This document shows positions 4,748-49,349 of a stretch of 49,349 nucleotides of DNA, piece by piece. The notes below the pieces were generated by a model. The model saw nothing but the letters and a program-made list of their open reading frames with translations. It was not told where the DNA came from and did no database searches. Source of the DNA: a virus (taxonomy: Duplodnaviria; Heunggongvirae; Uroviricota; Caudoviricetes); IMG/VR virus record IMGVR_UViG_2529292718_000007. One strand, given 5' to 3'. Position 1 is the first letter of the stretch; every line of letters starts with the position of its first letter. The position numbers and the translations under genes are program-made.

Positions 4748-6210
4748 TGGGATATCGCCACGGTATTTATATATCTGAGCTGGCTACATCTATAACTCCT
4801 CCAGTACAAGTTAGTGCTGGGTTGATTGTCGCATTTGGTACAGCTCCTGTTAATCAGTTAGAAGATCCAGCCTCAGCGGTAAATAAACCTATCATTGCTT
4901 ATACATACGCAGAGGCCGTATCTAAAATAGGATATAGCACAAACTTCGAGAAATATACTTTAAGCGAAGTAATTAAAGTCGCATTTGGAATATATGGTGT
5001 TGCGCCAGTTGTATTTATCAATGTGCTTGATCCAGCAAAGCATAAGAAAGACGTAACTGATGAGGTAGTAAAACTTTCTGGCGGGAAAGGTACGCTCTCT
5101 AACGATGGTGTCTTATATAAATCTGTTGTTGTGAAAAAAGCAGATGGTGATTCTCCAGGGTTAACGGTTGATACAGATTATGTACTGGCGCTGGATGATA
5201 ATGGCTATACGGTCATTACCGCTATTAGCGGAGGAAAAGTTACTGAAAAAGACGCCACTCTTAAGGTTAGTTATACGTATCTTGATCCCGGGGCTGTAAC
5301 TAAAAACGATATTATTGGTGGCGTGGATTCCAACACTAAAGCGAATACGGGGCTTGAGTTACTGTCGGATGTTTATCCCCGCTTCAAACTAGTTCCAGGA
5401 CAAGTGATTGCGCCTGGATTTAGTTCTGATAGTGAAGTTGGCCAGCTAATGGCGGCTAAAGCTGCGCTGATTAGTGAATTGTTCAAAGCAGAAGCTATCA
5501 CCGATGCGCCGACTGATAAATCTACTATCAGTGATTATTCTGCTGTTCCTGAATGGAAGCAGAACAATAATCATATGGCAGCTAACCAGACAGTGTGCTG
5601 GCCGATGGTGAAACTTGGTGACAATATTTACCATCACTCAACCCATTTAGCGGCAGCAACATGCTTGCTGGATAGTCAGTATGGTGATATTCCATCACGT
5701 TCTCCGTCAAATATAAAACTACAGATGGACGGTGCTGTACGTAAAGATGGCAGTGAGGTATGGCTTAACATTAGCCAGGCAAACTACTTAAATGGACAGG
5801 GGATTGTAACAAGCCTTAATTTTGATGGTTGGAAATCATGGGGAAACCGTAATGCTATTTATCCAACATCTACAGACCCCAAAGACGCATTTCGTGTTTG
5901 CCGACGTATGTTTAACTGGGTGGGTAATACGTTAATTCTTTCGCATTGGTCAAAAATAGACAATCCTGCAAACCGTCGATTAATTGAATCGATTGTTACT
6001 AGTGCGAATATTTGGCTTAACGGCCTCACTGGTAATCAGGATATTGCAGGTGGTGTTGTTACCTTTGATCAGTCTGAAAACACGATTACGTCATTGATGG
6101 ACGGGATTGTTAAATTCCATGTGAAAATGACACCATTCTCACCTGCCAGAGATATAGAGTTCGTCATGGAATATAATCCTGATTATCTGCTGAACTTGTT
6201 TTCTGAATAA
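4747..6210 (+). CDS. Contractile tail sheath protein
   Basis: 487 aa; size and position before tube gene; Mu L/P2 FI-like. Confidence 0.85.
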   Translation: MGYRHGIYISELATSITPPVQVSAGLIVAFGTAPVNQLEDPASAVNKPIIAYTYAEAVSKIGYSTNFEKYTLSEVIKVAFGIYGVAPVVFINVLDPAKHKKDVTDEVVKLSGGKGTLSNDGVLYKSVVVKKADGDSPGLTVDTDYVLALDDNGYTVITAISGGKVTEKDATLKVSYTYLDPGAVTKNDIIGGVDSNTKANTGLELLSDVYPRFKLVPGQVIAPGFSSDSEVGQLMAAKAALISELFKAEAITDAPTDKSTISDYSAVPEWKQNNNHMAANQTVCWPMVKLGDNIYHHSTHLAAATCLLDSQYGDIPSRSPSNIKLQMDGAVRKDGSEVWLNISQANYLNGQGIVTSLNFDGWKSWGNRNAIYPTSTDPKDAFRVCRRMFNWVGNTLILSHWSKIDNPANRRLIESIVTSANIWLNGLTGNQDIAGGVVTFDQSENTITSLMDGIVKFHVKMTPFSPARDIEFVMEYNPDYLLNLFSE

Positions 6211-7193: not shown

Positions 7194-9986
7194 ATGGCCA
7201 GCAATAAGAACTTTAAGCTGGCTTTTGAAATTGGCGGCAAAGTTGCCGCCTCTCTCCCCAAAAGTTTTACTACAGCTAATCAGGCTGTTGCTAAATTAAA
7301 TGCCGAGCTTGCTGGATTAACGAAAGAACATGGGGAAATTCAAAAGCTACAATCTGTAAAAGTAAAGGTTGGACAGACTGCCCTCGAATATCATAAAGCT
7401 GCCGCTCGCGTTGAAGAGTTACAGAAGCAAATAAAAAACACGGCCAATCCAACCAGAGCGATGCTTCGTGACTTTGAGAAGGCAAAAACACATTCATCGA
7501 ATTTACGAGCATCACTACGTTCTCAGCGTGAAGAACTGGCCGCTTTAAAGTCTGCCTATCAGGGAGCTGATACATCTGCCAGAGCTTTGGCCTCAAGAGA
7601 GAAAGAGCTTAAAGCCAGCATTGATCGTAATCGTGAGGCTCAGGCCCGTAGCGTTGAGCAGGTTAACCGCTACAGAACGGCTTTGGCTTTAGCCAGAGCA
7701 AATGTTCAGCAAGTGAAAAAACAGCAGGAGGAACTTAACCGGGCATTAGAAAAACAACGTATTGATAAAATTAACAGCTATAAAAATGCGTTGGCTGAAG
7801 CACGGAAAAATGTTCTTGCAGTAAAACGTGCTCAGGAGGAGTTAAACCGCGCGTTGGAAAGGCAGCGTGAATTGAAGCGAGAGCATCTTGGTGAGGCAAA
7901 GAGTCAACTTGTAAGGTCAGGATTACAAACTGGTGCTGTAGCGGCTGGTGCATTTGCTGCTGCTAACAATGCAGCAAATTTCAATCGTGAAAACAAAATG
8001 ATTGGTCTTACGGCAGATATGAAGCCGGAAGAAGTTCAGGCGATGGGGCAGGCGATGCTTGTTACCGGAACGGCTACCAACCAGTTTGCATCTGATATTC
8101 AGGCCGCTCAGGGTTTTCTCGTAGCTGCTGGGCAGGATTATAAAGAGGCTCAGGCGAATCTACTAACTATTGGGCGAACAGCTACAGCTACTGGCTCTGA
8201 TATCCTCGATGTCTCGAAAGCATCATTTACATTAAGTGACTCATTGAAGATTGATCCATCTCAAATGAAGTCTGCAATGGGGATTCTGGTTCAGGCAGGG
8301 AAAGAGGGGAACTTTGAATTTAAAGATATGGCCAAAAATCTTCCTGTGCTTGGTGCTCAGTTCCAGGCATTAAAAATGGGAGGTAAAGAAGCAGCCGCGA
8401 CGATGGGTGCAGCTTTGCAGATAGCTCGCAAGGGGGCTGCAACTTCGGATGAGGCTGCTAATAATATGAACAACTTTTTGGCAAAAATACTTTCCCCTGA
8501 AACACTAAAAAAAGCAAAGAAAAATTTCGGTGTAGATTTATATAAAATTGTTACAACAGCGCAGAAAAAAGGGAAGAATCCATTCGAAGCTGCAATGCAT
8601 TCTGTCATGAAAATGACTAAGAACGGAGATCAGAAGTTACTTGGTGAACTATTTGGCGATATGCAGGTTCAGAACTTTGTTCGTCCGATGATTCAAAACT
8701 GGAAGGAATACCAGAGAATCAAAGCAACATCTCTTGGAGCTGGAAGTGCTGTTATTGACCGCGATTTTGCCAACATAACGAAAGATAATGCGGAGCGATT
8801 GAAACAATTACGTATTCAGGCTAGCAATGCATCATTAAGTTTTGGTCAGGCCTTGCAACCTGCTTTGAATGCCGCGCTTAGTGTTTTGGTTCCGCTGATT
8901 ACAAAAATTAGTGAATTTGTAGCTAACAACCCCAATTTTGTGTCTCAGATAGTGATGGCGGCAGGTGCGTTTCTAACCATGAAAAGTGTGGTTATAGCGT
9001 GTAGGGTAGCTATGCTGGCTTTATCTGTAGCGACAAAGCTAACACCCTTCGGGTGGATTCAGATGGCTATATCTGCGCTGGTTGCCGCAGGAATATTGCT
9101 CTATCAGAATTGGGATAAGATCAGAGATTATGCTGTCAGAGTTTGGCCTTCTGTTAAGGAATATACAGTTAAATCATTTGAGGCTATAAAAAACTTTATC
9201 TTAAACTTTGACCTCAATGGATGGATTATATCTATGTTTGGTAAAGCATGGGATTATCTTTCCAACATAAACTGGAGTTCGGCAGGTGTAAGAATTTACA
9301 GTACATTAATTAGTGCTTTTAAATGGATGTCTCCGCTTCCGTTCTTAATTAAAGCATTTAAAATTACAACAAATTACCTTTCTGGCATTAACTGGAGCGA
9401 AACAGGAAAGAAAATCATAGATACACTGGTATCTGTTTTTATGCGTTTTTCACCAGTTGGACTCTTTATAAGAGCATTCCAATCTGTAACGACTTATTTA
9501 TCTGGAATAAACTGGAGTGAGTCAGGCGCAAAAATAATTGAGACGTTAATCACTGGGATAAAATCAAAAGCAAATGCTTTAATTAATGAAGTGAAAGGCG
9601 TTTTTTCTTCTGTACGTGAGTATTTACCGTTCTCTGACGCGAAAAAAGGTCCATTCTCACAGCTAACAAAGTCAGGTGGTGCAATAATGACTACTCTGGC
9701 ATCAGGTGTTAGCAGGAATAACAGCTTACAGAATGCAATAGCAAGCAAGTTCGGGCAATCAAATTTATCACCTCACGGGATATCTGCCGCCGGGACTTCT
9801 GGACCTCGCCAGAACGTTAACGCTGTGACTGGTGGAATAACCTATTCACCTGTAATCAATCTTCCGGCTGGTTCACCAAAGGAAACTGAGGCGGCAGCTA
9901 AAAGAGCATTAGATGCGGGATATTCTGATTTTGAGAAGAAATTGAGTGCTCATATGTTCCAACAACGGAGATTAAGTTTTGGATGA
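7194..9986 (+). CDS. Tail tape measure protein
   Basis: 930 aa; coiled-coil N-terminal region with repeated QEELNRALE segments, hydrophobic central region; position. Confidence 0.85.
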   Translation: MASNKNFKLAFEIGGKVAASLPKSFTTANQAVAKLNAELAGLTKEHGEIQKLQSVKVKVGQTALEYHKAAARVEELQKQIKNTANPTRAMLRDFEKAKTHSSNLRASLRSQREELAALKSAYQGADTSARALASREKELKASIDRNREAQARSVEQVNRYRTALALARANVQQVKKQQEELNRALEKQRIDKINSYKNALAEARKNVLAVKRAQEELNRALERQRELKREHLGEAKSQLVRSGLQTGAVAAGAFAAANNAANFNRENKMIGLTADMKPEEVQAMGQAMLVTGTATNQFASDIQAAQGFLVAAGQDYKEAQANLLTIGRTATATGSDILDVSKASFTLSDSLKIDPSQMKSAMGILVQAGKEGNFEFKDMAKNLPVLGAQFQALKMGGKEAAATMGAALQIARKGAATSDEAANNMNNFLAKILSPETLKKAKKNFGVDLYKIVTTAQKKGKNPFEAAMHSVMKMTKNGDQKLLGELFGDMQVQNFVRPMIQNWKEYQRIKATSLGAGSAVIDRDFANITKDNAERLKQLRIQASNASLSFGQALQPALNAALSVLVPLITKISEFVANNPNFVSQIVMAAGAFLTMKSVVIACRVAMLALSVATKLTPFGWIQMAISALVAAGILLYQNWDKIRDYAVRVWPSVKEYTVKSFEAIKNFILNFDLNGWIISMFGKAWDYLSNINWSSAGVRIYSTLISAFKWMSPLPFLIKAFKITTNYLSGINWSETGKKIIDTLVSVFMRFSPVGLFIRAFQSVTTYLSGINWSESGAKIIETLITGIKSKANALINEVKGVFSSVREYLPFSDAKKGPFSQLTKSGGAIMTTLASGVSRNNSLQNAIASKFGQSNLSPHGISAAGTSGPRQNVNAVTGGITYSPVINLPAGSPKETEAAAKRALDAGYSDFEKKLSAHMFQQRRLSFG

Positions 9987-14317: not shown

Positions 14318-17164
14318 GTGAGTAAATTATTATTTACGATGACTGACGCCGGGCGTAAGGCGCTGGTTAATGCCAACAAGACTGGAACAAATAAAGTTGA
14401 GATCGTTTCTGTTGGTTTAGGTAGTAGATATTATGCCACATCAACCACACAAACAAAAATAACAGATGAAATAAAGCGACTTACCACAATAGGAGGCAAA
14501 GTCGTTTCTCCTGATACCATTCATGTAACTGCGAAGGATGATAGTAAAGATGAGTATGTTGTCCATACAATAGGTTTGTATACAAATAAAGGAACATTGT
14601 TTGCTGTATACTCGCAAGAACAAGTAATAATAAATAAAGCATCTTCTACAATTGCTTTAATATCAAGTGATATAGCAATTAAAAATCTTGATACTAAAAA
14701 CATTACATTTGGTGATGTTGAGTTTATTAACCCTCCCGCAACCGAAACTGTTGTTGGAGTAGCAAGATTTGCTAATGAACAAGAAATTGATGCAGGTACA
14801 GATGATTCCCTGGCTGTTTCAGCAAAGCGGCTTAAGCAAGCTATTGTAAAACATGAGCAATCACGTAATCATCCTGATGCAACTTTAACATCAAAAGGCA
14901 TTGTTCAACTCAGTAATGCCACCAATAGCACGTCTGAAAAGCTCGCAGCGACGCCTAAGGCTGTTAAGGCTGCATATGACCTGGCTGACGGAAAATATAC
15001 CGCCCAGAATGCCACCACGGCACAAAAAGGGATAGTTCAGCTCAGTAGTGCCACTAACAGTACGTCTGAAACGCAGGCGGCAACGCCAAAAGCGGTCAAG
15101 GCAGCAAATGACAACGCAAATTCACGTCTGGCGAAAAATCAGAACGGTGCAGATATCCAGGATAAATCAGCTTTTCTGGACAATGTTGGCGTTACCAGCC
15201 TGACGTTTATGAAAAACAATGGCGAAATGCCGCTTGATGCTGATCTGAATACGTTTGGTCCTGTTAAGGCTTATTCAGGTATCTGGTCTAAAGCAACATC
15301 CACCAACGCAACACTGGAGAAAAATTTCCCGGAAGATAATGCTGTCGGTGTGCTTGAGGTTTTTGCTGCCGGCCATTTTGCAGGTACGCAACGCTTTACC
15401 ACGAGAGACGGCAATGTATACATGCGTAAACTCGCCAATAAGTGGAATGGCACTGATGGTCCGTGGGGCGTATGGCGTCACACTCAATCTGCTACCCGCC
15501 CTTTGAGTACGACTATAGACCTGAATACGCTTGGAGCCGCCGAGCATCTTGGTTTATGGCGTAACAGTAGCTCAGCTATAGCTTCATATGAACGCAATTA
15601 TCCAGAGGAAGGCGGCTTTGCTCAGGGGATGCTTGAGATCCTCGAAGGCGGAAATTATGGAAGAACGCAACGTTATACCACTCGCCGTGGAAATATGTAT
15701 GTCCGCTGTCTTGCGGCAAGCTGGGATGCATCAAATCCGCAGTGGGAACCGTGGTTAAGAGTCGGTCATCAGTCAGAGAGTCGTTATTACGAAGGTGATT
15801 TGAATGATGTAACCTCACCAGGTATTTACAGCGTTACAGGTAAAGCGACCAACGGTCCAGTACTGGACGGAAACGGCGTGACTGTACTCGGCATTCTGGA
15901 AGTGTTGAGGCGGTTTGATGGTGTTAATGTATGGCAGCGTTATACAACTGCCGGAACAGGTACAACCCTTAAAGGCCGCACCTTTGAGCGCGTCTTTACC
16001 GGCAGCTCATGGAGCGAATGGCGGGAAGTCTACACCTCGTATTCACTTCCCCTGAATCTGGGTATCGGCGGTGCTGTGGCAAAGCTCACCAGCCTGGACT
16101 GGCAGACCTACGATTTTGTGCCGGGCAGTCTGATAACCGTTCGGCTTGATAACATGACCAATATTCCCGACGGTATGGACTGGGGCGTCATTGATGGCAA
16201 CCTGATAAACATCTCAGTCGGTCCGAGTGATGATTCTGGTTCGGGACGCTCAATGCATGTATGGCGCAGCACTGTAAGTAAAGCCAACTACCGCTTTTTT
16301 ATGGTTCGCATTTCAGGAAATCCGGGAAGCCGCACGATCACGACAAGACGTGTGCCAATTATCGACGAAGCTCAGACATGGATGGCGAAACAGACATTCA
16401 GCGGTGGTCTTTCAGGCGAACTATCCGGCAATGCTGCTACAGCAACAAAGCTGAAAACGGCAAGGACAATTAACGGCGTAAAATTTGACGGCTCGGCAAA
16501 TATTGAAGCGTTTCCGCCAGGTGTTCCGCTGCCGTGGCCATCAGATACGCCACCTGCAGGTTATGCAATCATGCAGGGGCAGACGTTTGATAAGGCAGCA
16601 TATCCGAAACTGGCTATTGCCTATCCTTCTGGTGTTATTCCAGATATGCGCGGCTGGACAATCAAGGGCAACCCCGCCAGTGGTCGGGCCGTATTGTCTC
16701 AGGAACAGGATGGCATTAAATCGCACACCCACAGTGCCAGCGCATCCAGTACGGATTTGGGTACGAAAACCACATCGTCGTTTGATTACGGTACTAAATC
16801 AACGAATAACACAGGTGCACATACCCACAATGTATCTGGTACTGCAAATAGTGCTGGCGCACATACTCATACCGTTCCATTAAGGAGACCAAACAGTGGC
16901 GGTATGAATTTCGACTGGCTGGATGGTTCATCAAGTGGCACGGTGGTGGGGAATGGAACTGTGCCTTCTTCTGGCGCACATACCCACTCAGTATCAGGTA
17001 CCGCTACAAGTGCTGGGGCACATGCACACACTGTTGGTATTGGCGCTCATACGCACTCTGTTAAGATTGGTTCACATGGACACACCATCACCGTTAACGC
17101 TGCTGGTAACGCGGAAAACACCGTTAAAAACATCGCATTTAATTATATTGTGAGGCTTGCATAA
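14318..17164 (+). CDS. Tail fibre protein
   Basis: 948 aa; tandem fibre repeats (GIVQLSxATNSTSE..[10 protein letters not shown] twice), duplicated central domain, His-rich C-terminal repeats (GAHTHxVSGTA...). Confidence 0.85.
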
Positions 17165-21904: not shown

Positions 21905-21910
21905 GCTCAT

Positions 21911-22024
21911 AGAATTATATAATTATATATTTATATAAAAAGCGCTTTACAGGTGGGAAAAAATTTCCTATGGTTATACCCGAAACCGAGCGATACCCGC
22001 CCTGGTTAAACCGGAGATAACCCG
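21911..22024 (+). promoter_or_regulatory. Conserved promoter-leader module, copy 1 of 3
   Basis: Near-identical to 30607..30719 and 38793..38906; AT-rich palindromes, then TTTACA (21946-21951), 17 bp spacer containing GGAAAAAATTTCC, TATGGT (21969-21974), then leader with GGAGA SD before ATG 22025. Confidence 0.6.
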
Positions 22025-22405
22025 ATGAGCATGATTAAAATCCGCAAAAACGCTTTCCTTAAAATTCAAACTATCCTGGCTGGTTCTGTTGGCGTGATTT
22101 GCCGTTCTTCTTCAAGCCGCATCGATGACGGCTACGATGATGAGTACCGTGTGTCCTCGTGCGATGAGGCTTTAACCTGGCTGAAGGAGAATCAGGAACG
22201 TGCCCAGGTATATCTGGAAACAGAGAACGGCAATCAGATGCTGCGTATTAGCGGTCGTTATGGATTTGAAACTACATTCATGGCCTATTTTAATCAGGCT
22301 TACTTTGACAAGGAGCTGGCCTGGTACACTGATCGCATGAGCAAAAGCGAGCCAGCCCCGATTACACCGCCGAACAATAAACCATTTTTATTCCTCGTTA
22401 AGTAA
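22025..22405 (+). CDS. Hypothetical protein (first gene of module 1)
   Basis: 126 aa ORF with SD; no family recognised. Confidence 0.5.
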   Translation: MSMIKIRKNAFLKIQTILAGSVGVICRSSSSRIDDGYDDEYRVSSCDEALTWLKENQERAQVYLETENGNQMLRISGRYGFETTFMAYFNQAYFDKELAWYTDRMSKSEPAPITPPNNKPFLFLVK

Positions 22406-22468
22406 ACACAATGCGCAAAGTGTCATTTTGACACTTTGCGAGTGTTAATATTGTGCGAGGAGGATGCT

Positions 22469-22741
22469 ATGACGGGTTATGAATTGAAATTATGGCGTCG
22501 TGGGATGAACTGGACGCAGGAGCGAGCCGCCGAATAATTTGGGATATCGTTGGCTACATATAAGCGATATGAGAAGGGGGAGCCGCCGAGGGTCATTGAG
22601 ATGGCCATTCGCGTTCTGTCGTTTGACGATATGGTTAAGGATCTTTCACACCTTGATAAAGATGCGATTCTGTTAAGGCTGCAAACCCTTGTATGGGAAA
22701 AGGTTAAAGTGTCGTCAGAATTGGAACAAGGGATCAAATGA
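22469..22741 (+). pseudogene. XRE-family HTH gene interrupted by in-frame TAA
   Basis: ATG 22469 with strong SD GAGGAGGA; MTGYELKLWRRGMNWTQERAAE then TAA at 22535-22537, same frame continues ...FGISLATYKRYEKGEPPRVIEM... to 22741. Confidence 0.55.
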
Positions 22742-22792
22742 TCCTTTACGGATCGTTTTATGGTGGTGTAATGTAAGCGCCAGAAAGACAAA

Positions 22793-22814
22793 AACCGCCT
22801 TGCCGGGCGGTTTT
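22793..22814 (+). terminator. Rho-independent terminator
   Basis: AACCGCCttgccgGGCGGTT followed by TT. Confidence 0.5.
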
Positions 22815-23347
22815 CAGTCTGAAATTTAAATCTTGCTTGGTAGGCTGGATTTAAAAAGACACCTCTTGATTGGGGCGGCTTTCTTGCGTCTAAAGATAAT
22901 CAAATCTTTTTGCGCCTGCAACCCCTTTTTTACTGGTGCCTGTTTCAGACTCACGCTCGCGTCGTTGTCTTTGCCACTTCGTTGGGTTCGGTGTTTTTGG
23001 GCGGAGTGGCGCGCGGGTATGCGTACAAGGGGAAAGTGTGCTGACGCAAGCCAGGAACAGCGATCTAAACTAAGTCGAGTCTGAGAAAGGCAGGAGTGCG
23101 ACAACTCGCCTGTGCTCAATGAGCAGAAGAAGGTATATCAGACGACCAATGGCATGATTGTGGGCCACAGGGCGCACACGGCGGCGAAGCATTGGAAACG
23201 ATGTGGAGCTATCTGGTGGCATGAGTTCCGGTACTCGATCTCGAGCTTTTTTTGATGCTTTTGAGAAGGGGCCGGAACTCCGGTAAAGGGCACCCTGTAT
23301 GGGGGGAGGGGGGGTTGTGTCTTAAAGGGGCCGTAGCCCCTTTGTTG

Positions 23348-24490
23348 TTATGGTCTGCTTTTCTGTGCGAGCTTATCAGCACATGTTTTTATCAGCTCCT
23401 GTAGTGTCCTGGCTGGCAGGTTTGCATCCAGTACGCTGAGTATGCTGTTGTGATCTGCCTGGTCGACTACTTTGCCTGTCGGTGGTAATAGCTTGAGCTG
23501 AGGATTCAGGTTTTCGTCAAAGCTGATAAGTGCTCTGGCGTTTCTGAGCAGATCAAGAAGTAAGGCTGATATCACATTTTCCTGAGTCATTGCTGGCAGA
23601 TTTAGCGCCGCTTTGGTTTTCCCTGTTGCCTTGTCAAACTCCTTGATTAGTTCCTTCCTGTAGTTCGGTTCCGTTAATAGCCGATTATGCTCTGTTGCCG
23701 CGCGGATAATCGTTTTTTCCTGGTACAGTCGTTTAGCCAGATCGCGCTCGTACTGTGTTTTTAACACGCTGCTGATAGCGCTAAAGGCTTCAATGTAGGC
23801 CAGCTTGATATCCTTCACGCCTGGACCGTCGATACTTTCCATGAGCAAGGTAAATCCGTCTTTTGTCATGCGATAGATTGTTATTTCGCGGTCGCTTCCT
23901 TCCAACGGTCGTTGCTCTTTAAAGAAATGACGCGCCGCAGCTGTGCGAGGAATGCGTAACGCATCGATGGCCATAACGATGGAATTGTTTGTGGTGCTGA
24001 ATGCTTGGGCAACATCGGCTGAGGTTGTGAGTGGCTCGTTATTGCACACCTTAATGTAAAACATCGGTTTGGCGTTGAGCGTATCGACAACCTCACGAGC
24101 ATTGTTTGGCGAGACGGTTACGGTCGCGGCCGTTTGCGCGTTCTGGTTGAAGTAGCAGTCTTCCAGCCGTTCGAATACATCCCACGCCTGATCGGTTTCG
24201 AGCATTTTAGCGTGACGTGCAGCCCCGCGTTCGGTCCAGAGGATTAGTTTTCTAACGTTATTCGCGATGGTTTGAAAATCTCTTAAAGAGATTTTCAAAC
24301 TTTGGAGATCTGTACCTTTTACAATTATGAAATGTTTTCCTTCTGTAAACCGGGACTTATTACGGTGGTGATTTCTGTGAAGACATTCGACGCTACAGCC
24401 ATATAGTTTGGCAAGCAGCTCCGTGGTGATAACGGGGATCTGGTTATGCAGGATAGGCTGTAGGGTGTTAACGGTCGGAAGAGTTTTCAT
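23348..24490 (-). CDS. ant: Phage antirepressor / Rha-family regulatory protein
   Basis: 380 aa; two Rha/antirepressor-like segments (IPVITTELLAKLYGCSVECLHRN; PLTTSADVAQAFSTTNNSIVMAIDAL). Confidence 0.55.
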   Translation of the reverse strand: MKTLPTVNTLQPILHNQIPVITTELLAKLYGCSVECLHRNHHRNKSRFTEGKHFIIVKGTDLQSLKISLRDFQTIANNVRKLILWTERGAARHAKMLETDQAWDVFERLEDCYFNQNAQTAATVTVSPNNAREVVDTLNAKPMFYIKVCNNEPLTTSADVAQAFSTTNNSIVMAIDALRIPRTAAARHFFKEQRPLEGSDREITIYRMTKDGFTLLMESIDGPGVKDIKLAYIEAFSAISSVLKTQYERDLAKRLYQEKTIIRAATEHNRLLTEPNYRKELIKEFDKATGKTKAALNLPAMTQENVISALLLDLLRNARALISFDENLNPQLKLLPPTGKVVDQADHNSILSVLDANLPARTLQELIKTCADKLAQKSRP

Positions 24491-24678: not shown

Positions 24679-25431
24679 TGTGATATCTCCAGTATATGGA
24701 ACTATCACCGCCATTCGAGGCTAATCAAATGGTGGTGAGCCGTACAGGGTTAGCCTTACCGGACACAATGACGAACCGGCGCGGATTTCTCCGCCCCTGT
24801 ACGACCCACCATAATTTGGGCGTAACAGTGCTCTACGCATAAAAAAACCGCTAACGCGGTATGCGCCATCGTGTTATTCAGGAGGCTAATCCCGGCCGTA
24901 GATTTTGCTACGGCTCGGAAAGTGTCCACCAATGGCGCATTTATGTCAATACGGCGGGGTTTTAACAGAGACAACCACATAGCGTGGGTTTATTGGTAGG
25001 CAGAAACAAAAAAACCGCCCTATTGAGGACGGTTCTTTCGTGCTGATCGGATTCGCGGTCCTTTCAGCATTACGTTGTTGTATAAACAACCACGCAAGCA
25101 CAAGCAGCAAGTTAATTTTACCCAAAAGGTAATAATAGTCCACTATTATGCTTCAAAAAATTGTGGTTCTTGTTGTGCCTGCAAACTCACAGATTGTGGG
25201 TAGGTTACTGATTTTGTGAAAATAAACGAGTTTTTTCGTTTAATTTCTTTCCTATTACTAATCTTAAAATAATCGTAAAATACCTGTGGACCTTCCCGCC
25301 GATTCGCACCCGGGCACCGACTTTAGGGGAGGATTCTCCGTTGCCGTACATGCAAGCACAAGCAGCCGTGCTTGCTCTCGCGTTGTTTTCGTCGGTGGGG
25401 ATGCCGTGAAACGGCCTGTAAGGGCCATACA

Positions 25432-25554
25432 ATGAAAAAATACTGTATGTGTATTTTTATCGTTGTTACTGGGGCTTTGTTTACGCCACATGGGGAGGGT
25501 TGGAAGATTACTGATAACGCTCTGAATGTGACGATAAACATTAGCAGCAAGTAG
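25432..25554 (+). CDS. Small hydrophobic peptide (40 aa)
   Basis: MKKYCMCIFIVVTGALFTPHGEGWKITDNALNVTINISSK; followed by strong terminator. Confidence 0.3.
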   Translation: MKKYCMCIFIVVTGALFTPHGEGWKITDNALNVTINISSK

Positions 25555-25559
25555 CGATT

Positions 25560-25583
25560 AGGCCCCTTCGGGGGCCTTTTTTT
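25560..25583 (+). terminator. Rho-independent terminator
   Basis: AGGCCCCttcgGGGGCCT followed by TTTTTTT. Confidence 0.7.
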
Positions 25584-25805: not shown

Positions 25806-26054
25806 TTACTTCTGGTTGTATTGAGCCTTGAGTAACTCAAAAGACTTTGTCAGCACTTCTTTCAATGACATATCCATTGAGCTGGCGAACGTTTTGTACT
25901 CGCGTTTAAATTCAGGGTCGACGTTAAACGCCATTTGTGCCCCACCTGATTTGGTTCTGGTTGGCGTTTCAGTCGGGTCGAAAACCTGCGGTTGTTCGAT
26001 CGATGGCGGTACGCCTTTGCTGTTCTTCTTTGGTGGTTTTGATGGTGCGGCCAT
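25806..26054 (-). CDS. ParG-like ribbon-helix-helix centromere-binding protein
   Basis: 82 aa; disordered basic N-terminus then RHH-like FNVDPEFKREYKTFASSMDMSLKEVLTKSFELLK; downstream of parA. Confidence 0.7.
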   Translation of the reverse strand: MAAPSKPPKKNSKGVPPSIEQPQVFDPTETPTRTKSGGAQMAFNVDPEFKREYKTFASSMDMSLKEVLTKSFELLKAQYNQK

Positions 26055-26097
26055 GTGTATCCCCTCTTATATAAATCTATAAAACTATAATTATATA

Positions 26098-26751
26098 TTA
26101 TGCGGCAGTAGTCAGAGCCTCAAGCTGGTTGATAATCCCCTGAATAACGTCGTCTGCCTTTTTGCGTGGCGCAACGTATGAGCACTCAATGAGGCTTAAG
26201 CCCTTATCCTGAGCTTTGCTCAGAGCTGGCTTGTGGGGAATGTACTTATCGACAACAAAGTATGGCGTATTAGCCAGGTACTCTTGGGCTTCAATATAGT
26301 CAGCTTCGTTTTCAGCCGCGCCGGAAAACACCATGCAAATTTTCTTGATTGGTACACCCTTTTTAACGATGCCGTGAGCAGTGTTAACGGTGGTTTCCAG
26401 GTCATCGGTAGAGAATCGGGTTGGCAAAATAACCATATCCAGAAATTCAGATAGCTTCGGTACTGATTCAGATGCGTAGGCACCGCCATCGACGATAACC
26501 AGGTCGTATACTTCTGATTCGATGATTTTCTGGACTTGTGATGGTGTGCCGCACGGCTGCGCCGCGATTGCTGGTTCGATATTGTTGGCCATTCTGCGTT
26601 GTACCCAACGCGTTACCGTTCCGTTAAGCACATCCATATCGATCAGGCATACATTCCAGCCAGCCTTTGCATAAGCAACTGCTAAAGCACGGGCAATTGT
26701 TGATTTGGTTACGCCGCCTTTTCCGTTGAAAATACCTACAGAGATAGTCAT
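26098..26751 (-). CDS. parA: Partition ATPase ParA (small type Ib)
   Basis: Deviant Walker A GIFNGKGGVTKST; track start 26766, ATG 26751 has GGAG SD. Confidence 0.8.
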   Translation of the reverse strand: MTISVGIFNGKGGVTKSTIARALAVAYAKAGWNVCLIDMDVLNGTVTRWVQRRMANNIEPAIAAQPCGTPSQVQKIIESEVYDLVIVDGGAYASESVPKLSEFLDMVILPTRFSTDDLETTVNTAHGIVKKGVPIKKICMVFSGAAENEADYIEAQEYLANTPYFVVDKYIPHKPALSKAQDKGLSLIECSYVAPRKKADDVIQGIINQLEALTTAA

Positions 26752-26775
26752 TTGTCGAGACTCCATGTGTTTGGT

Positions 26776-26879
26776 TATATAATTCTATAAATCTATATTT
26801 ATAGAACGAGGTAAGCATAACCAACTTTTTGGCTGATGAAAAGCGTTTTATATAATTATATAAATCTATAATCATATAA
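26776..26879. promoter_or_regulatory. par operon promoter/operator (possible centromere) with two AT-rich palindrome clusters
   Basis: TATATAATTCTATAAATCTATATTTATAG (about 26776-26805) and TATATAATTATATAAATCTATAATCATATAA (about 26847-26879) upstream of parA; a third cluster at 26067-26100 between parA and parG-like gene. Confidence 0.5.
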
Positions 26880-27368: not shown

Positions 27369-28025
27369 TCATAACCAGTTGACAACACTAACTACGCGGC
27401 CAAGAACTTTATAACGCTTAAATTCCTCGTTATTCAGATGCTTAGTGTTCATTTCAGCATCCCTTTCGGTTGACAGCATAACAGCATTGTCACCCGGTAT
27501 GACTCTACAGTGCCTCAAAACAACCAGGCCATTTCTGTCTTCAAGGGCATAGATCCCCTCATGAATCTCTGTATCGTCTGTATTAATCAGGACTTGGGAG
27601 CCTGGGGATATTGTTGGTGACATTAACTCATCGTTGCTCTGGAGAACTGACAGAGACGATGGGTTGATGTTCTTGCTTCGTAGAATCTCCTGTTCTATCG
27701 CCAGCACTGGCTTTTCTCCGGCGTGCGATGCTATGTCATTTTTTATAGCTACAAGCCCAGGAATAACAGGAGCGTTAGTATTCTGGGGTGGGAACGGGTT
27801 ATCTGTTAAGCACGCGATATAAGGCGCTGATGCTTTCAGGGCGTGCGCGATTTTCTTGATGGCAGGTATAGATGGTTGTCTTAATCCGGCCTCATAGTTC
27901 TGCAAGGTGCTTAAGCCTATTCCAGTGACTTGCTGGAGATCTCCGGCAGTCATGCCGGATTGTTTCCGTAGAGTCTGAATGCGCAGACCTATTTCTTTCT
28001 TGATGTTCTCGTCGTTGCTTTTCAT
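27369..28025 (-). CDS. cI: CI-like repressor (N-terminal XRE HTH, C-terminal S24 LexA-like domain)
   Basis: 218 aa; HTH GLRIQTLRKQSGMTAGDLQQVTGIGLSTLQNYEAG; C-terminal S24-like fold (MSPTISPGSQVLIN...); divergent from Cro-like gene. Confidence 0.75.
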   Translation of the reverse strand: MKSNDENIKKEIGLRIQTLRKQSGMTAGDLQQVTGIGLSTLQNYEAGLRQPSIPAIKKIAHALKASAPYIACLTDNPFPPQNTNAPVIPGLVAIKNDIASHAGEKPVLAIEQEILRSKNINPSSLSVLQSNDELMSPTISPGSQVLINTDDTEIHEGIYALEDRNGLVVLRHCRVIPGDNAVMLSTERDAEMNTKHLNNEEFKRYKVLGRVVSVVNWL

Positions 28026-28199
28026 GTCTCATCAATCGTGAATGGTGGGTTATTTATACATTACCACATTTAGTGGTTTTCACATGGTAAGACGAGAGGT
28101 GGACCACAAATAGAAGGTTATTTTTTGTTTCGCCCATTGAAAAACTCACGATATGTGGTTTTAATACCACGTATCGTGGTTTTAACTGGAGTTCGTTAA
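28026..28199. promoter_or_regulatory. Immunity-region divergent promoter/operator
   Basis: Operator-like palindromes ACCACATTTAGTGGT (28063-28077) and ACCACGTATCGTGGT (28166-28180); rightward promoter TTGAAA (28137-28142)-17 bp-TTTAAT (28160-28165) abutting the second palindrome. Confidence 0.55.
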
Positions 28200-30550: not shown

Positions 30551-30606
30551 AAGTGTCATTTTGAGCTGTTTTGATGGTGTGTAGACATCGGGAACATCGA
30601 AAATCT

Positions 30607-30719
30607 ATAAATATATAATTATAGATTTATATAAAAAGTGCTTTACAGGTGGGAAAAAATTTCCTATGGTTATACCCGAAACCGAGCGATACCCGCCCTG
30701 GTTAAACCGGAGAAATCTG
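30607..30719 (+). promoter_or_regulatory. Conserved promoter-leader module, copy 2 of 3
   Basis: TTTACA at 30642-30647; about 95 bp nearly identical to copies 1 and 3 (one substitution before the last 10 nt of the leader); ends at ATG 30720. Confidence 0.6.
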
Positions 30720-31787
30720 ATGAATAAACAAGTAATTATTTCTGACTGGATCAACAACCCTAACAGCCTGTTAAGCACTGATACTGGCTACCTATTACGC
30801 CATGTTAATGGTCGTATGGTCAAAAGCGATGAGCACGAAACCTTTTTCTTTGTTGAAGACGATGGGCGTATCTATGAGGATGGTTACTCTTATGAAGCCC
30901 AAACTGGTTGTATCCCTGCGGAGCTGGTGGACGTAACAGAAGATCTGCGCAAAGCATGGCTTGAACAGCAGCAGCGCGGAGATGATTACGTAAACACCTA
31001 TCAGGAACGCCAGAACGCGCGTCTTGCCCGATATATTGCTCGTGCAGAAAAAGCCAGAAAAGAAGGTGCGGTAGCGCATAAGCGAGCGCATGACCTGTTG
31101 GATGTGATCCCGTTAGGCCAGCCGATTTTAGTTGACCATTATAGCGCGAAAGGCCATCGCCGCCGTTTGTCTAAAGCTGATGCGTTATTCAGAAAAGCGT
31201 TTGTTGAATGCGAAAGTAAAGCATCACACTACGAGAGCAAAGCCGCAGGTGTTGGTCGTAATGGAATTTCGTCTGATGATCCTGATGCGCTATTTAAGTT
31301 GCTTCGTAAGCTGCAAGGCTGCATGAAGTCACACGTCAAAATGAAGGCCGCAAATAAGGCCATTCGCAAATACAAAAAAGACCAAATACAGCAGCTTTCT
31401 GCATTAATCGATCTCAGGTTTACAGAAAGCGAAGCCAAAGAGTTACTGGCCGGAGATTTCTGTGGGCACATCGGATTCCCTTCATACGCACTGAGCAACA
31501 ATAACGCCGAAATCAAACGACTACAGAGCCGTATTAAGGAGCTTGAATCGGTCAAGTCTGTAACAGGAGCACAGCGCGAAGAATACGACGGCTTTTCTAT
31601 GGAGATAGATCCAGAGGATAACCGCATCCTGTTTTATTTCCCTGGCAAACCAGAGGCAAACATTCGTTCGCTGCTTAAATCACGCGCCTTTAAGTGGAGT
31701 CCAACCCGTAATGCATGGGTTCGCAAGATTACTCCAAACGCCCTGGCTGATGCCCGATATCTAAAAGAATCGCTATTGAAAGCCTGA
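30720..31787 (+). CDS. DUF3560-like protein
   Basis: 355 aa from ATG 30720 (track ORF 30666 begins inside the conserved leader); QPILVDHYSAKGHRRR and C-terminal FKWSPTRNAWVRK pattern. Confidence 0.5.
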   Translation: MNKQVIISDWINNPNSLLSTDTGYLLRHVNGRMVKSDEHETFFFVEDDGRIYEDGYSYEAQTGCIPAELVDVTEDLRKAWLEQQQRGDDYVNTYQERQNARLARYIARAEKARKEGAVAHKRAHDLLDVIPLGQPILVDHYSAKGHRRRLSKADALFRKAFVECESKASHYESKAAGVGRNGISSDDPDALFKLLRKLQGCMKSHVKMKAANKAIRKYKKDQIQQLSALIDLRFTESEAKELLAGDFCGHIGFPSYALSNNNAEIKRLQSRIKELESVKSVTGAQREEYDGFSMEIDPEDNRILFYFPGKPEANIRSLLKSRAFKWSPTRNAWVRKITPNALADARYLKESLLKA

Positions 31788-31864
31788 CAGTAAGCCTACG
31801 GCGGGACGTCTCCCGCCGTATATAGAATTATATATTTATACAAATGTATAAGGACGCCTCGACA

Positions 31865-32146
31865 ATGAAACGCAAAATTATTAACCCCCAAGATGTGATT
31901 AATTTCCTGACCGATCACCCATGTTCAAAAGTGGACGTAATCGCGGAGCACATTGGTGTGTCGCAGAACTCTATGCGTTGCAGACTGAGAAGCATGGTTG
32001 CCGAAGGACAGATAACAACCAGGAAAATAAATGGTTGCCTGTACTACTCCGCTAAACCGGAATTGCCATTTGGCATGAATCCTAACTCCATGTTGTTTAA
32101 CACCTTATTAGCCAAAGTTAAGCCGTTGAGAGGGGCTGTGGCATGA
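31865..32146 (+). CDS. Putative winged-helix DNA-binding protein
   Basis: Track ORF 31844..32146; ATG 31865 has AAGGA SD; helix-rich small protein; preceded by AT-rich palindrome cluster. Confidence 0.4.
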   Translation: MKRKIINPQDVINFLTDHPCSKVDVIAEHIGVSQNSMRCRLRSMVAEGQITTRKINGCLYYSAKPELPFGMNPNSMLFNTLLAKVKPLRGAVA

Positions 32147-37653: not shown

Positions 37654-37822
37654 TATATATTTCTATAATTATATAAATATATAGTTACAACATTCTATGC
37701 GCTTTTCTCATGGGCGCACGCATCAACCATGTTTGTCTGATATGCCGCCGCGCCCAAAAATCCTGAATTTATTGGCTGGGATTTTCGTGCGCGGCGCCAC
37801 ACCAGACAAACAGATCAAATAT

Positions 37823-37898
37823 GGCCCCTTAGCTCAGTGGTTAGAGCAGGCGACTCATAATCGCACGGTCATCGGTTCAAATCCGGTAGGGGCCACCA
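37823..37898 (+). tRNA. tRNA with CAU anticodon (Met or lysidine-type Ile2)
   Basis: 76 nt cloverleaf: acceptor GGCCCCT/AGGGGCC, D-stem GCTC/GAGC, anticodon loop CTCATAA, T-arm ATCGG-TTCAAAT-CCGGT, 3' ACCA. Confidence 0.85.
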
Positions 37899-38206: not shown

Positions 38207-38794
38207 ATGGAGGCAATTGCATTGTTTAATCTGATTTATGCAGATCCCCCCTGGGAATACAAAGATAAGTGTAAGGATGGGAATCGTGGAGCTGGTTTTA
38301 AGTATCCAACGATGAAAGCTGAGGATATTGCTCGTATTCCTGTCTTGCAGCTTGCTAATCCTGAATCGTGTTTGTTGGCCATGTGGTGGGTTCCGACTCA
38401 GCCAGAAGAAGCGTTGCTGGTGGTGAAAGCATGGGGATTCAGGCTTATGACCATGAAGGGCTTCACATGGAACAAATGTGGTAGCCGACAACCAGATAAG
38501 CTGGTGATGGGGATGGGGCATATGACTCGTGCAAACAGTGAAGATTGCTTGTTTGCGGTAAAAGGCAAATTGCCGACCCGCCTTGATGCGGGGATCATTC
38601 AGTCGTTTACATCGCCTCGTCTGGAGCATTCTCGGAAGCCTGATGTGGTTCGTGACAAGCTGGTAAGGCTGTTAGGTGATGTTCCTCGTATTGAGCTGTT
38701 TGCTCGCGGTGATTTACCTGATGGTTGGCATGGCTGGGGCAACCAGTGCAATGGAGGTATCCAGTTGCATGATGCTCTCTGGCAAGTGGTATAG
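38207..38794 (+). CDS. DNA N6-adenine methyltransferase (MT-A70 family)
   Basis: 195 aa; hallmark DPPW motif (LIYADPPWEY). Confidence 0.8.
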   Translation: MEAIALFNLIYADPPWEYKDKCKDGNRGAGFKYPTMKAEDIARIPVLQLANPESCLLAMWWVPTQPEEALLVVKAWGFRLMTMKGFTWNKCGSRQPDKLVMGMGHMTRANSEDCLFAVKGKLPTRLDAGIIQSFTSPRLEHSRKPDVVRDKLVRLLGDVPRIELFARGDLPDGWHGWGNQCNGGIQLHDALWQVV

Positions 38795-38906
38795 AATTAT
38801 ATAATTATAGATTTATATAAAAAGTGCTTTACAGGTGGGAAAAAATTTCCTATGGTTATACCCGAAACCGAGCGATACCCGCCCTGGTTAAACCGGAGAT
38901 AACCCG
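38793..38906 (+). promoter_or_regulatory. Conserved promoter-leader module, copy 3 of 3
   Basis: TTTACA at 38828-38833; identical leader and SD before ATG 38907. Confidence 0.6.
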
Positions 38907-39176
38907 ATGAAAGTACAAGACCGTGAAGTAGTAAAAAACCTCCTGCAATACCTGACCTCAAAAAACCTGACTGGCAGCGTTGAGTTCCGTGAAGCGTTAA
39001 AACATTTCAACGTCACTACGGTTTATCGTTGGGAAAACAAACATTCTGAAAGACCGTATGTGGTGGATGTTTTTGCGCCTGATATTGAGTGCGGTTTTGA
39101 GCGTCATTCGTTCAAGGAGAAACATTCTGCTGATTTTTTTTGTGAGGTTGTATGTGCGGCAGGAGATGATGAGTGA
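38907..39176 (+). CDS. Hypothetical protein (first gene of module 3)
   Basis: 89 aa ORF with SD. Confidence 0.5.
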   Translation: MKVQDREVVKNLLQYLTSKNLTGSVEFREALKHFNVTTVYRWENKHSERPYVVDVFAPDIECGFERHSFKEKHSADFFCEVVCAAGDDE

Positions 39177-47499: not shown

Positions 47500-49070
47500 A
47501 TATTCTTGATCGAGTTATTGCGCCGTTTTCACCTCAGAGGGCATTAAATCGAGCTTTGGCAAGAAAACGGTTAGAAGCACTTGAAGGTATTAATAACCTT
47601 GGATATTCACGTCATGGTGCAAGCACTCATAAAAAATCATTAAGGGGTTGGTTTAGTAAAGCTGGTTCTCCTGATGATGATATTGTTAAAAATATAGATA
47701 AATTGCGTGAGCGTTCTCGTGATCTCTTCATGGGAAACCCGCTATCTGTTGGCGCAATAAAAACTATCAGGACAAACGTTGTTGGTTCCGGTTTAAAACT
47801 AAATGCGAACATTGATGCCGATTTCTTGGGGATGACGCAGGAAGAAGCGCGAGCATGGGAAAAGCATGTTGAGCGTGAGTTTAGATTATGGGCTGATTCT
47901 CCAAATTGTGATGCATCAAGAATGTGTACTTTTGGACAATTGCAATCATTGGTCCAAATATCTGCGTTAACATCTGGCGATATATTTGCTGCGCTACCAG
48001 TTATTAAGCGTAAGGGTGTTATATATGATTTGTGCGTCTATTTAATTGAAGGTGATCGTGTTTGCAATCCAGAGGATCGTTTTATACCAAATCTTTACGG
48101 TGGCGTAGAGGTTGGTGAATTTAGCGAGCCTGTGGCGTACTGGGTTGCAAAACATCACCCAGCCGGGACTTCTGGTTTTGTAACCCGCAAGTGGGAACGT
48201 ATTCCCGCATATGGGAGTAAAACAGGAAGAAGAAATATTCTGCATGTCATGCAGGATTTTGAAAGGCCTGGGCAACGCCGTGGCGTTCCTGTCCTTGCTC
48301 CTGTAATTGAAGCATTGAAGCAGTTAGGGCGATACACCGATGCTGAATTGGTTGCTGCGGTTGTGTCAGGGATGTTTACTGTCTTTATTAAAACAGACGC
48401 TCCTGATGGGCCAGTCGGTGAATCGGGTATCCCTCAGTACGAGCAGATCGATAACCATGATGATAACACCCAAGAAATGGGGAATGGCTCCATAGTAAGT
48501 TTGGGTGAAGGTGAGTCGATAGATACAGCAAATCCCGGGCGACCAAATACGGCATTTGATGGTTTTGTTGTCGCCATATGCCGTCAAATTGGGGCTGCTT
48601 TAGAACTCCCTTACGAACTCTTGGTAAAGCATTTTACAGCAAGTTATAGCGCAAGCAGGGCCGCATTACTTGAAGCCTGGAAAATGTTCCGTATGCGACG
48701 TGACTGGATGGTTCAGTCATTTTGCCAACCGATCTATGAGGAATGGTTGGCCGAAGCCGTTGCTAAAGGTCGTGTTATTGCCCCTGGTTTTTTTTATGGG
48801 CCTGAATATCGCGCTGCATGGAGTGGCGCTCAATGGTATGGCCCATCACAAGGCCAATTAGATCCTCTTAAAGAAGTCAAAGCTGCAAAACTGCGTGTTG
48901 AGGAAACATTCTCTACCCGTGAAAAAGAAGCGGCTGAAATGTCAGGTCTTAACTGGGAAGAAACCGCACAAATCTGTGGCAGAGAAGAGAATGCTCGCCG
49001 TGAGTTGGGGCTTATTACACCTCCTGTTTCTGAGGTAAATGAACAAAATATGGAGACTGATGATGCCTAA
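47496..49070 (+). CDS. Portal protein (lambda gpB family)
   Basis: 524 aa following terminase/gpW; C-terminal 240 aa repeated at 1..723 because the window wraps. Confidence 0.85.
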   Translation: MNILDRVIAPFSPQRALNRALARKRLEALEGINNLGYSRHGASTHKKSLRGWFSKAGSPDDDIVKNIDKLRERSRDLFMGNPLSVGAIKTIRTNVVGSGLKLNANIDADFLGMTQEEARAWEKHVEREFRLWADSPNCDASRMCTFGQLQSLVQISALTSGDIFAALPVIKRKGVIYDLCVYLIEGDRVCNPEDRFIPNLYGGVEVGEFSEPVAYWVAKHHPAGTSGFVTRKWERIPAYGSKTGRRNILHVMQDFERPGQRRGVPVLAPVIEALKQLGRYTDAELVAAVVSGMFTVFIKTDAPDGPVGESGIPQYEQIDNHDDNTQEMGNGSIVSLGEGESIDTANPGRPNTAFDGFVVAICRQIGAALELPYELLVKHFTASYSASRAALLEAWKMFRMRRDWMVQSFCQPIYEEWLAEAVAKGRVIAPGFFYGPEYRAAWSGAQWYGPSQGQLDPLKEVKAAKLRVEETFSTREKEAAEMSGLNWEETAQICGREENARRELGLITPPVSEVNEQNMETDDA

Positions 49071-49349
49071 TTGGTGGGAAATAAAAAATAGCACGGGTGA
49101 AGATGACTCTCCGGCTGAGCTTTTAATTTACGGGTATATTGGTGAATTTGATGAGGTTTCTTCTTCTGACATAGTTAATAAATTAAAGGATATTTCATCA
49201 AATACTATCAACGTAAAAATTAATAGTTATGGTGGTTCTGTTTTTACTGCTCAAGCTATTCTTTCATCATTAAAGCGTCATAAGGCGAATATTACGGTTT
49301 ATATCGACGGGATTGCTGCATCGGCTGCAACTATTATTGCAATGGCGGG

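Follow-up and report, generated by a model that had tools for sequence, protein, structure and literature searches.

The intergenic region at positions 26776-26879, located 5' of parA, carries AT-rich repeats that recur at promoters unrelated to partition, which raises the question of whether one small partition protein could bind at all of these places. The window, that is, the whole stretch of 49,349 nucleotides analyzed here, is a circular genome of ~48,347 bp whose sequence runs on beyond its own start, positions 1-1002 being the same as 48348-49349 (a 1,002-bp overlap). The Yersinia phages vB_YpM_39/41/44 show 96% identity to the window, and ~60 non-mobilizable plasmids of E. coli, Salmonella and Klebsiella (44-52 kb) show 98-100% identity. 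The RefSeq annotation of an identical plasmid includes a myovirus structural module, lysis genes, an IncFII-type RepA, a CI-like repressor, a toxin-antitoxin pair and a ParA gene; since phage genes and plasmid genes are annotated on the same molecule, the element was classified as a phage-plasmid. No description of its regulon was found in the literature. Note that repeats of another kind are present in the tail gene at 9254-9535 (three 42-nt repeats spaced 120 bp) and in the tail-fibre region at 16814-17035 (repeated GAHTH-coding units); these are probably structural protein repeats.

Eight arrays were found in seven intergenic regions. Each consists of four TATA-like tetramer boxes with an exact 8-bp period and 4-bp A/T-rich spacers, (TATA-N4)x4, and the 32 boxes include 26 TATA, five TAGA and one TACA. 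The arrays, to which no strand was assigned, are as follows:

21910-21937, array D, located 8 bp 5' of the -35 of promoter module 1 (box starts 21910/18/26/34)
26070-26097, array A, four TATA boxes in the 43-bp parA-parG spacer, directly 5' of the parG-like RBS (26070/78/86/94)
26778-26805, array B, the proximal par array, boxes TATA, TATA, TATA, TAGA, ~10 bp 3' of the parA -10 (26778/86/94/802)
26851-26878, array C, the distal par array, four TATA boxes directly after a terminator hairpin, ending 8 bp 5' of the parA -35 (26851/59/67/75)
30606-30633, array E, 8 bp 5' of the -35 of module 2 (30606/14/22/30)
31823-31850, array G, boxes TAGA, TATA, TACA, TATA, directly 5' of AGGACGCCTCGACAATG (31823/31/39/47)
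37656-37683, array H, four TATA boxes ~140 bp 5' of tRNA-Met at 37823-37898 (37656/64/72/80)
38792-38819, array F, 8 bp 5' of the -35 of module 3 (38792/800/808/816)

An earlier sequence-only reading had reported a family of AT-rich palindromes at eight loci, and clusters were found at every one of them. The description as palindromes had to be abandoned: TATAATTATA is palindromic, yet an 8-bp lattice of tetramer boxes accounts better for the arrays, with 13 in-register TATA triplets at period 8 and zero at periods 5-7 and 9-12. In a scan of the genome, no tetramer other than TATA showed such behavior at period 8. The motif TATAAATCTATA, with up to one mismatch, gave 14 matches against 0.25 expected, and TATAATTATA gave 18 against 2.57. 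The proposed enrichment over matched sequence was borne out by simulation. The eight four-box arrays observed compare with 0-0.005 per genome in whole-genome Markov simulations of orders 1, 3 and 5, with 0-0.03 under Markov models trained solely on the AT-rich neighbourhoods of the arrays, and with 0 in shuffled array cores.

All arrays are intergenic and together span 21.9-38.8 kb, the maintenance and early region, and all eight are retained in the 96%-identical Yersinia phage (L001). In five of them (A, B, C, E and F), TATAGATTTATATAA points to the regulated gene, on either gene strand. The only other near-match in the window (8531-8542) was a two-box partial array, TAGATTTATATAAAA, within a structural gene at 8531-8546, with TTGTTACAAC coming after it; array H is similarly trailed by GTTACAAC (37684-37691). 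The occurrence of TTGTTACAAC and GTTACAAC downstream of arrays may be due to chance.

The region in question belongs to a two-gene operon with the following components:

26814-26842, minus strand, putative parA promoter (PparA), -35 TTTTCA at 26837-26842 in plus-strand coordinates, 17-bp spacer, -10 TATGCT at 26814-26819, read by hand
26098-26751, minus strand, parA, a Walker-type ATPase of 217 aa that lacks an N-terminal DNA-binding domain (type Ib)
25806-26054, minus strand, parG-like gene, an 82-aa putative centromere-binding protein, predicted ribbon-helix-helix (RHH)

Read along the minus strand, the terminator hairpin of the upstream gene is followed by array C, an 8-bp gap, PparA (TTTTCA-17-TATGCT), ~10 bp and array B. 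Then come GGAG and the ATG of parA, its stop codon, array A in the 43-bp spacer, and the RBS and ATG of the 82-aa gene. If the putative promoter is correct, array B spans the start of the parA transcript, before the ribosome-binding site. The putative promoter agrees only weakly with the consensus and was missed by a stricter consensus scan. Its design is that of the three repeated promoter modules described below, and homologous TTTACA-N17 promoters are present in relatives. The ParA protein matched the Pfam families CbiA (1.7e-12), ParA and MipZ, an HTH domain being absent, and is named 'ParA family protein' by RefSeq on identical plasmids. The putative promoter is bracketed by arrays B and C, with array A ahead of parG; this layout was also found in eight relatives, where the repeats are specific to the par module. 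Judged by gene content and layout, parA and the 82-aa gene are a type Ib par module, composed of a small Walker ParA, a downstream partner with a predicted RHH fold and repeat arrays flanking the putative parA promoter.

Several other features were observed around this operon. A translation-start region, GGAG/AGGAC-N-CCTCGACA(A)ATG, is common to parA (26749-26766) and an unrelated winged-helix gene (31848-31867), and was also found in relatives (L002 38090-38107, L003 27712-27729, L008 ~5925-5945). It always stands right after an array, in all three of the specificity groups defined below; shared translational control and a duplicated module are both possibilities. In addition, a search against Rfam gave matches at these positions:

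24728-24816, minus strand, C4 antisense RNA
24841-24914, minus strand, isrK
25286-25582, plus strand, ryfA-like RNA

The ryfA-like RNA lies immediately 3' of the par operon. C4 antisense RNA and isrK lie beside an ORF6N/Rha antirepressor-like gene (23348-24490), an arrangement that looks like the P1/P7-type immI antirepressor control.

The 82-aa protein begins with a conserved basic N-terminal tail, MAxPSKPPKKxxKGxPP, and continues with the beta strand QMAFNVD and two helices. Modeling using AlphaFold (AF2) gave a beta-alpha-alpha arrangement for residues 41-80 at pLDDT 91-96 with a disordered tail, and an RHH fold is therefore predicted. The best Foldseek matches to the model were nearly all RHH proteins (StnY, CdbA, AmrZ, ParG 1P94 at rank 6, ParD, CopG, Arc), with weak E-values (0.5-3) because the domain is short (~40 residues); the match to ParG 1P94 had 15% identity and a TM score of 0.44-0.47. 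A Pfam search gave no match for the 82-aa protein itself. Among 45 homologues, weak matches to RHH_10 (in 16) and Antitox_RHH (in 9) were obtained, with no ParG family among the matches. Searches of PDB sequences using the single sequence and a profile also gave no match, so sequence homology to ParG or to any solved protein was not detected by these searches. The predicted RHH-like fold with a tail, combined with the lack of a sequence match, points to a ParG architecture without detectable sequence kinship. Thus, the name 'ParG-like', given to the protein from the sequence alone, is apt for the architecture (tail, predicted RHH, 1P94 at rank 6) and not for homology. The protein belongs to a family of ~80-aa proteins, for which 62 representatives at E<=1e-3 were found in one search and 161 in another; its members share the basic N-terminal tail and the C-terminal strand-helix-helix. 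By analogy with ParG and omega, K13-G14-P17 in the conserved tail is a candidate ParA-contact motif. A search of genome contigs with a ParA alignment returned two irrelevant loci only, and alignments of the ParG-like proteins contained no segment of sufficient conservation for such a search.

Outside par, arrays D, E and F form the 5' ends of a 120-bp unit repeated three times (21909-22028, 30605-30724 and 38791-38910) with 89-98% identity, ahead of unrelated genes. The unit consists of the array itself, AAAAAG, the promoter TTTACA-17-TATGGT, a conserved 45-nt leader, an RBS and ATG. The promoter modules are as follows:

21946-22027, plus strand, module 1, TTTACA-17-TATGGT (21946-21974) with the conserved 5' leader to the ATG of a 126-aa gene
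30642-30722, plus strand, module 2, promoter 30642-30670 with leader, ahead of a DUF3560/primase-like gene in an operon running towards the lysis genes
38828-38909, plus strand, module 3, promoter 38828-38856 with leader, heading genes that precede the ParB/Srx-like and terminase genes

Since they are parts of one duplicated 120-bp unit, arrays D, E and F are not independent of one another within this genome. The last box and the -35 are separated by 8 bp at each of the three modules, and the same distance is seen at PparA. The region AGGACGCCTCGACAATG that follows array G is the start region of a 93-aa winged-helix (MarR/FaeA-like) gene and resembles the parA start region GGAGTCTCGACAAATG; homologous units of an array plus start region were found in L002, L003, L008, L009 and L014.

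The leader RNA of the modules was only marginally more stable than its shuffles (z = -1.8), and no Rfam family matched the conserved leader. The spacer between the -35 and -10 of the modules contains an inverted repeat, GGAAAAAATTTCC, found in these three places only. Relatives carry TAGGAC-N5-GTCCTA at the same position, and GGAAAAAATTTCC may be the operator of a second regulator. Inverted repeats of the type CCAC...GTGG are located at 28060-28180, between the CI-like repressor gene (27369-28025, minus strand) and the rightward operon (28200 onwards), and are probably CI/Cro operators that differ from the TATA arrays. A CI operator within the promoter modules was considered and rejected, as GGAAAAAATTTCC is unlike the CCAC...GTGG of the CI-cro region and CCAC...GTGG is absent from the modules.

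The position of the arrays at -46 to -71, next to the AAAAAG tract, would suit a generic AT-rich promoter architecture of UP elements or sites for the host proteins H-NS, IHF or Fis, without a dedicated plasmid-encoded binder. We take the A-tract beside the array to resemble a proximal UP subsite, and TpA-rich DNA is a good substrate for H-NS. However, the exact 8-bp period and the count of four boxes are foreign to UP elements, and arrays were also found 3' of the parA -10 and in the parA-parG spacer. The IHF core WATCAANNNNTTR was not found within 15 bp of any array, and IHF sites were rejected for lack of this consensus at the arrays. The comparison with relatives bears further on this explanation.

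Relatives were selected as phage-plasmids with the gene order CI-like, small ORF, ParA, ParG-like, Rha, RepA, with ParG-like proteins 38-48% identical to that of the window. According to the beta strand of the ParG-like protein and the repeats at par, the genomes were arranged as follows:

Group 1: the window, L001 (Yersinia phage) and L014 (Citrobacter, ParG 90%); strand QMAFNVD/QMSFNVD, repeats TATAAWTN
Group 2: L002 and L003 (Serratia) and L012; strand (A/P/S)M(N/Y)FN(V/M)D, TTTAA-type 8-bp units, e.g., AATCTTTAAATATTTAA
Group 3: L008 (Citrobacter) and L009 (Enterobacter); strand QLLLRLD, GATATA/TATATC units
Further: L013; strand PMHFNVD, with its own repeat flavour
Further: L015; strand LLTFNID, also with its own repeat flavour

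The par layout was found to be preserved, with a distal array and a TTTACA-like promoter in all relatives and a proximal array in all but L013, while arrays occupy the position of array A in the parA-parG spacer of L002, L010 and L014. Homologous modules, recognised in relatives by a leader ending in CCGGAGATAA..ATG, carry the local repeat flavour, as do the homologous 'CCTCGACAATG' start regions. Sites were assigned to groups by the exact 8-mers that they have in common with the par arrays of the respective groups. All 29 non-par sites, from seven genomes, matched the par arrays of their own group best (0.39-0.97 versus 0.00-0.63 for other groups). A 12-mer cross-scan allowing one mismatch was only partly group-specific, groups 1 and 3 partly overlapping, because all flavours consist of A/T only; specificity differences should thus be subtler than for operators containing G/C. 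Comparison of the genomes showed that the repeat flavour co-varies with the ParG-like protein, jointly at par and at the homologous non-par promoters. The plasmid pTP33 of Y. pestis and an Erwinia plasmid were also tried as comparators and set aside as uninformative on the regulon, having distant ParG-like homologues, a different backbone and TTTCA-type repeats. Note that the Serratia marcescens relative L002 (CP083756.1) contains a recombinase gene and blaTEM-1 at 22462-24062, so this phage-plasmid lineage is able to carry a resistance gene.

The motif differs among phage-plasmids whose hosts are closely related Enterobacterales, with common specificities of the RNA polymerase alpha subunit and of the nucleoid proteins, and it tracks the type of ParG-like protein. 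Being lineage-specific within one host order, the arrays cannot be explained by the role of a host factor or UP element, and we consider such an origin extremely unlikely. UP elements or IHF-type sites, which had been offered as the alternative in the sequence-only reading, were not borne out as the main explanation, on this ground and on the missing IHF consensus.

A dedicated binder could still be a backbone-encoded protein other than the ParG-like one, with sites that include those at par; the 124-aa protein encoded 5' of parA and an HTH regulator are candidates, and several small proteins of unknown function are encoded nearby. The backbone and the par module diverge together, and co-variation alone cannot name the binder. 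This explanation is opposed by L010, a fragment of a conjugative plasmid from Klebsiella aerogenes that contains T4SS genes. Only ParA (84%) and ParG (79%) are common to L010 and L002, and L010 has no homologue of CI or of the 124-aa protein, yet its arrays at par belong to group 2, as does its beta strand. Perfect TTAAAGAA repeats are located 5' of parA and between parA and parG of L010 and nowhere else in the 16 kb covered, from which it follows that the repeats travel with the parA-parG pair. Taken together with the 29 matching sites, L010 indicates that the binder of the par repeats also has matching sites at other promoters. In addition, the small gene between CI and parA is not conserved among relatives (72 aa in L015, 135 aa in L013), and binding to repeats near the parA promoter is characteristic of type Ib centromere-binding proteins (PMC3130281, PMC3074150). 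Because the backbone and par co-diverge, a second backbone-encoded binder is excluded by L010 and parsimony only; its involvement was nevertheless judged very unlikely. No natural par-swap recombinant or par-less chromosomal relative was identified.

If the ParG-like protein does bind all eight arrays, those outside par could serve as a dispersed centromere only, adding complex mass or attachment points with no effect on transcription. Dispersion of this kind has a precedent in the phage-plasmid N15, whose four centromere sites lie apart from one another. With four boxes only, centromere activity in TP228 is about half of the full level, and it improves as boxes are added (PMC3130281), hence 32 boxes over 17 kb could help. 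On the other hand, the distance of the non-par arrays from the -35 is constant (8 bp), as is their orientation relative to the gene, which would be unexpected for centromere ballast. Their promoter-proximal positions are held in three specificity groups though the sequence changes, and omega, the best-studied analogue, uses the same sites as centromere and operator (PMC3074150). A purely centromeric role for the arrays outside par is thus regarded as unlikely.

The reading that we favor, and hold to be likely, is that the eight arrays are binding sites of the 82-aa ParG-like RHH protein and act as a centromere, as the par operator and as operators of a small regulon. This was also the central proposal of the sequence-only reading, including a regulon beyond par, and it came through all in silico tests applied, namely those of the type Ib pair, the ParG-like site geometry, the co-variation of flavours and L010. 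Binding by the 82-aa protein, the stoichiometry of one dimer to a box, the direction of regulation and the partition activity are inferred by analogy. Each TATA-like box would accept one ParG-like dimer with its beta ribbon inserted in the major groove, and dimers on boxes 8 bp apart would cooperate, giving about four dimers per four-box array. Arrays A, B and C would then be the centromere and autoregulatory operator of par, while arrays D-H would be operators of the three modules, the 31865 gene and the tRNA region, which would make the partition protein a plasmid-wide regulator.

Repression could proceed by two routes: the alpha C-terminal domain of RNA polymerase could be kept off the A-tract beside the -35, or one further dimer could be cooperatively extended onto the -35. 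Both are conceivable, since the array ends 8 bp from the -35 by the A-tract and the box lattice continues into the -35. Repression is the most likely sign, although -46 to -71 is a typical activator position; it is preferred because it is the most economical assumption and matches the autorepression expected at PparA, which has the same geometry. Activation may also result from this position of the arrays.

A more far-reaching version of this mechanism is put forward tentatively, and we regard it as doubtful. ParG-like dimers, aided by ParA, would hold down the three modules in the plasmid state. An increase in copy number following induction, or a disturbance of the partition complex, would let the 32 boxes per copy titrate the protein, so that the modules fire. 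The operons of the modules lead to replication-like, lysis and packaging genes, and no CI-type operator is present in the modules. If this were true, partition status or copy number would itself serve as a developmental signal, and the five or more protein/repeat flavours would be incompatibility and immunity types among related phage-plasmids.

The promoter module was found in 74 of 5,426 complete E. coli genomes (~1.4%), and 214 of its 217 places were plasmid-borne, the other three being chromosomal. It occurs three times in each of 62 plasmids, all of which belong to group 1. The reference strain E. coli ATCC 25922 carries the same phage-plasmid (48,488 bp, modules ~96% identical; NZ_CP009073.1 / NZ_CP117232.1), and experiments should therefore be easy to set up. 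Phage-plasmids must coordinate two lifestyles. For the link between maintenance genes and the phage programme, the arrangement described here offers a testable wiring, in which candidate sites of one small partition protein are located at par and at a thrice-repeated module and are re-specified together in relatives. Orthogonal protein/repeat pairs that differ at beta-strand positions could be a natural toolkit for the study of RHH specificity and for synthetic repressors.

Among known systems, the ParF-ParG-parH/OF module of TP228 is similar in that the gene for a small Walker ParA precedes that for a protein of ~80 aa, in which a flexible N-terminal tail is combined with an RHH domain (a predicted one in our case). 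In both systems, degenerate tetramer boxes with regular 4-bp AT-rich spacers and an 8-bp period lie upstream of the ATPase gene (PMC3130281). In TP228, one ParG dimer binds each ACTC box, the boxes being separated by 4-bp AT-rich spacers; binding is cooperative, the DNA is both operator and centromere, and dimers can be tethered onto neighbouring non-cognate positions (PMC3130281). The window differs in its box (TATA/TAGA versus ACTC), in discrete four-box units (eight arrays, 32 boxes) versus one block of 20 boxes, and in the absence of detected sequence homology between the 82-aa protein and ParG. Furthermore, the parA-parG spacer holds one of the arrays and unrelated promoters account for five, whereas ParG is known as an autoregulator only.

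In pSM19035, heptad arrays 5' of the copS, delta and omega promoters serve as both centromeres and operators (PMC3074150). Omega is an RHH protein with a disordered N-terminus that binds cooperatively with one dimer per repeat and couples partition to global plasmid gene control (PMC3074150). The resemblance lies in the same repeat arrays being present at several non-par promoters, five in the window. The omega sites differ, being contiguous 7-bp heptads WATCACW, 7-10 per site, in a Gram-positive system, versus 8-bp units in fours in a Gram-negative phage-plasmid, and no triple box matches at period 7, as would be expected of heptads, were found for the window arrays. The targets of omega concern copy control, par and toxin-antitoxin, whereas the putative targets here include operons leading into phage early, lysis and packaging genes.

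Two further plasmid segregation proteins, KorB of RK2 and StbA of R388, have many operators across the replicon and control several operons (PMC11790492; bioRxiv 10.1101/2022.04.29.490116). KorB is a ParB-CTPase sliding clamp and StbA an HTH protein, both unlike the ParG-like system in fold, site type and mechanism. For the linear phage-plasmid N15, Ravin, Rech and Lane are reported to have found in 2008 that the sop sites are close to phage promoters and affect the expression of late genes. The partition sites of N15 (IR1-4; PMC7205306) are, like the arrays, scattered through the genome instead of being grouped beside the par operon. Unlike the window, N15 has a type Ia system with a large SopA and a spreading HTH SopB, and its sites are single 16-bp inverted repeats instead of tetramer-box arrays.

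If the favored reading is correct, the omega paradigm would be extended to Gram-negative phage-plasmids, and the tetramer-box geometry of ParG to a new protein family with ~160 detectable members or more. Omega, KorB and StbA already exemplify the regulator logic, and ParG the site geometry; the novelty lies in their combination. It comprises a new centromere-binding family, predicted to be RHH, in Gram-negative phage-plasmids, discrete four-box arrays, several co-evolving protein/repeat flavours and a thrice-repeated promoter module presumptively controlled by a partition protein.
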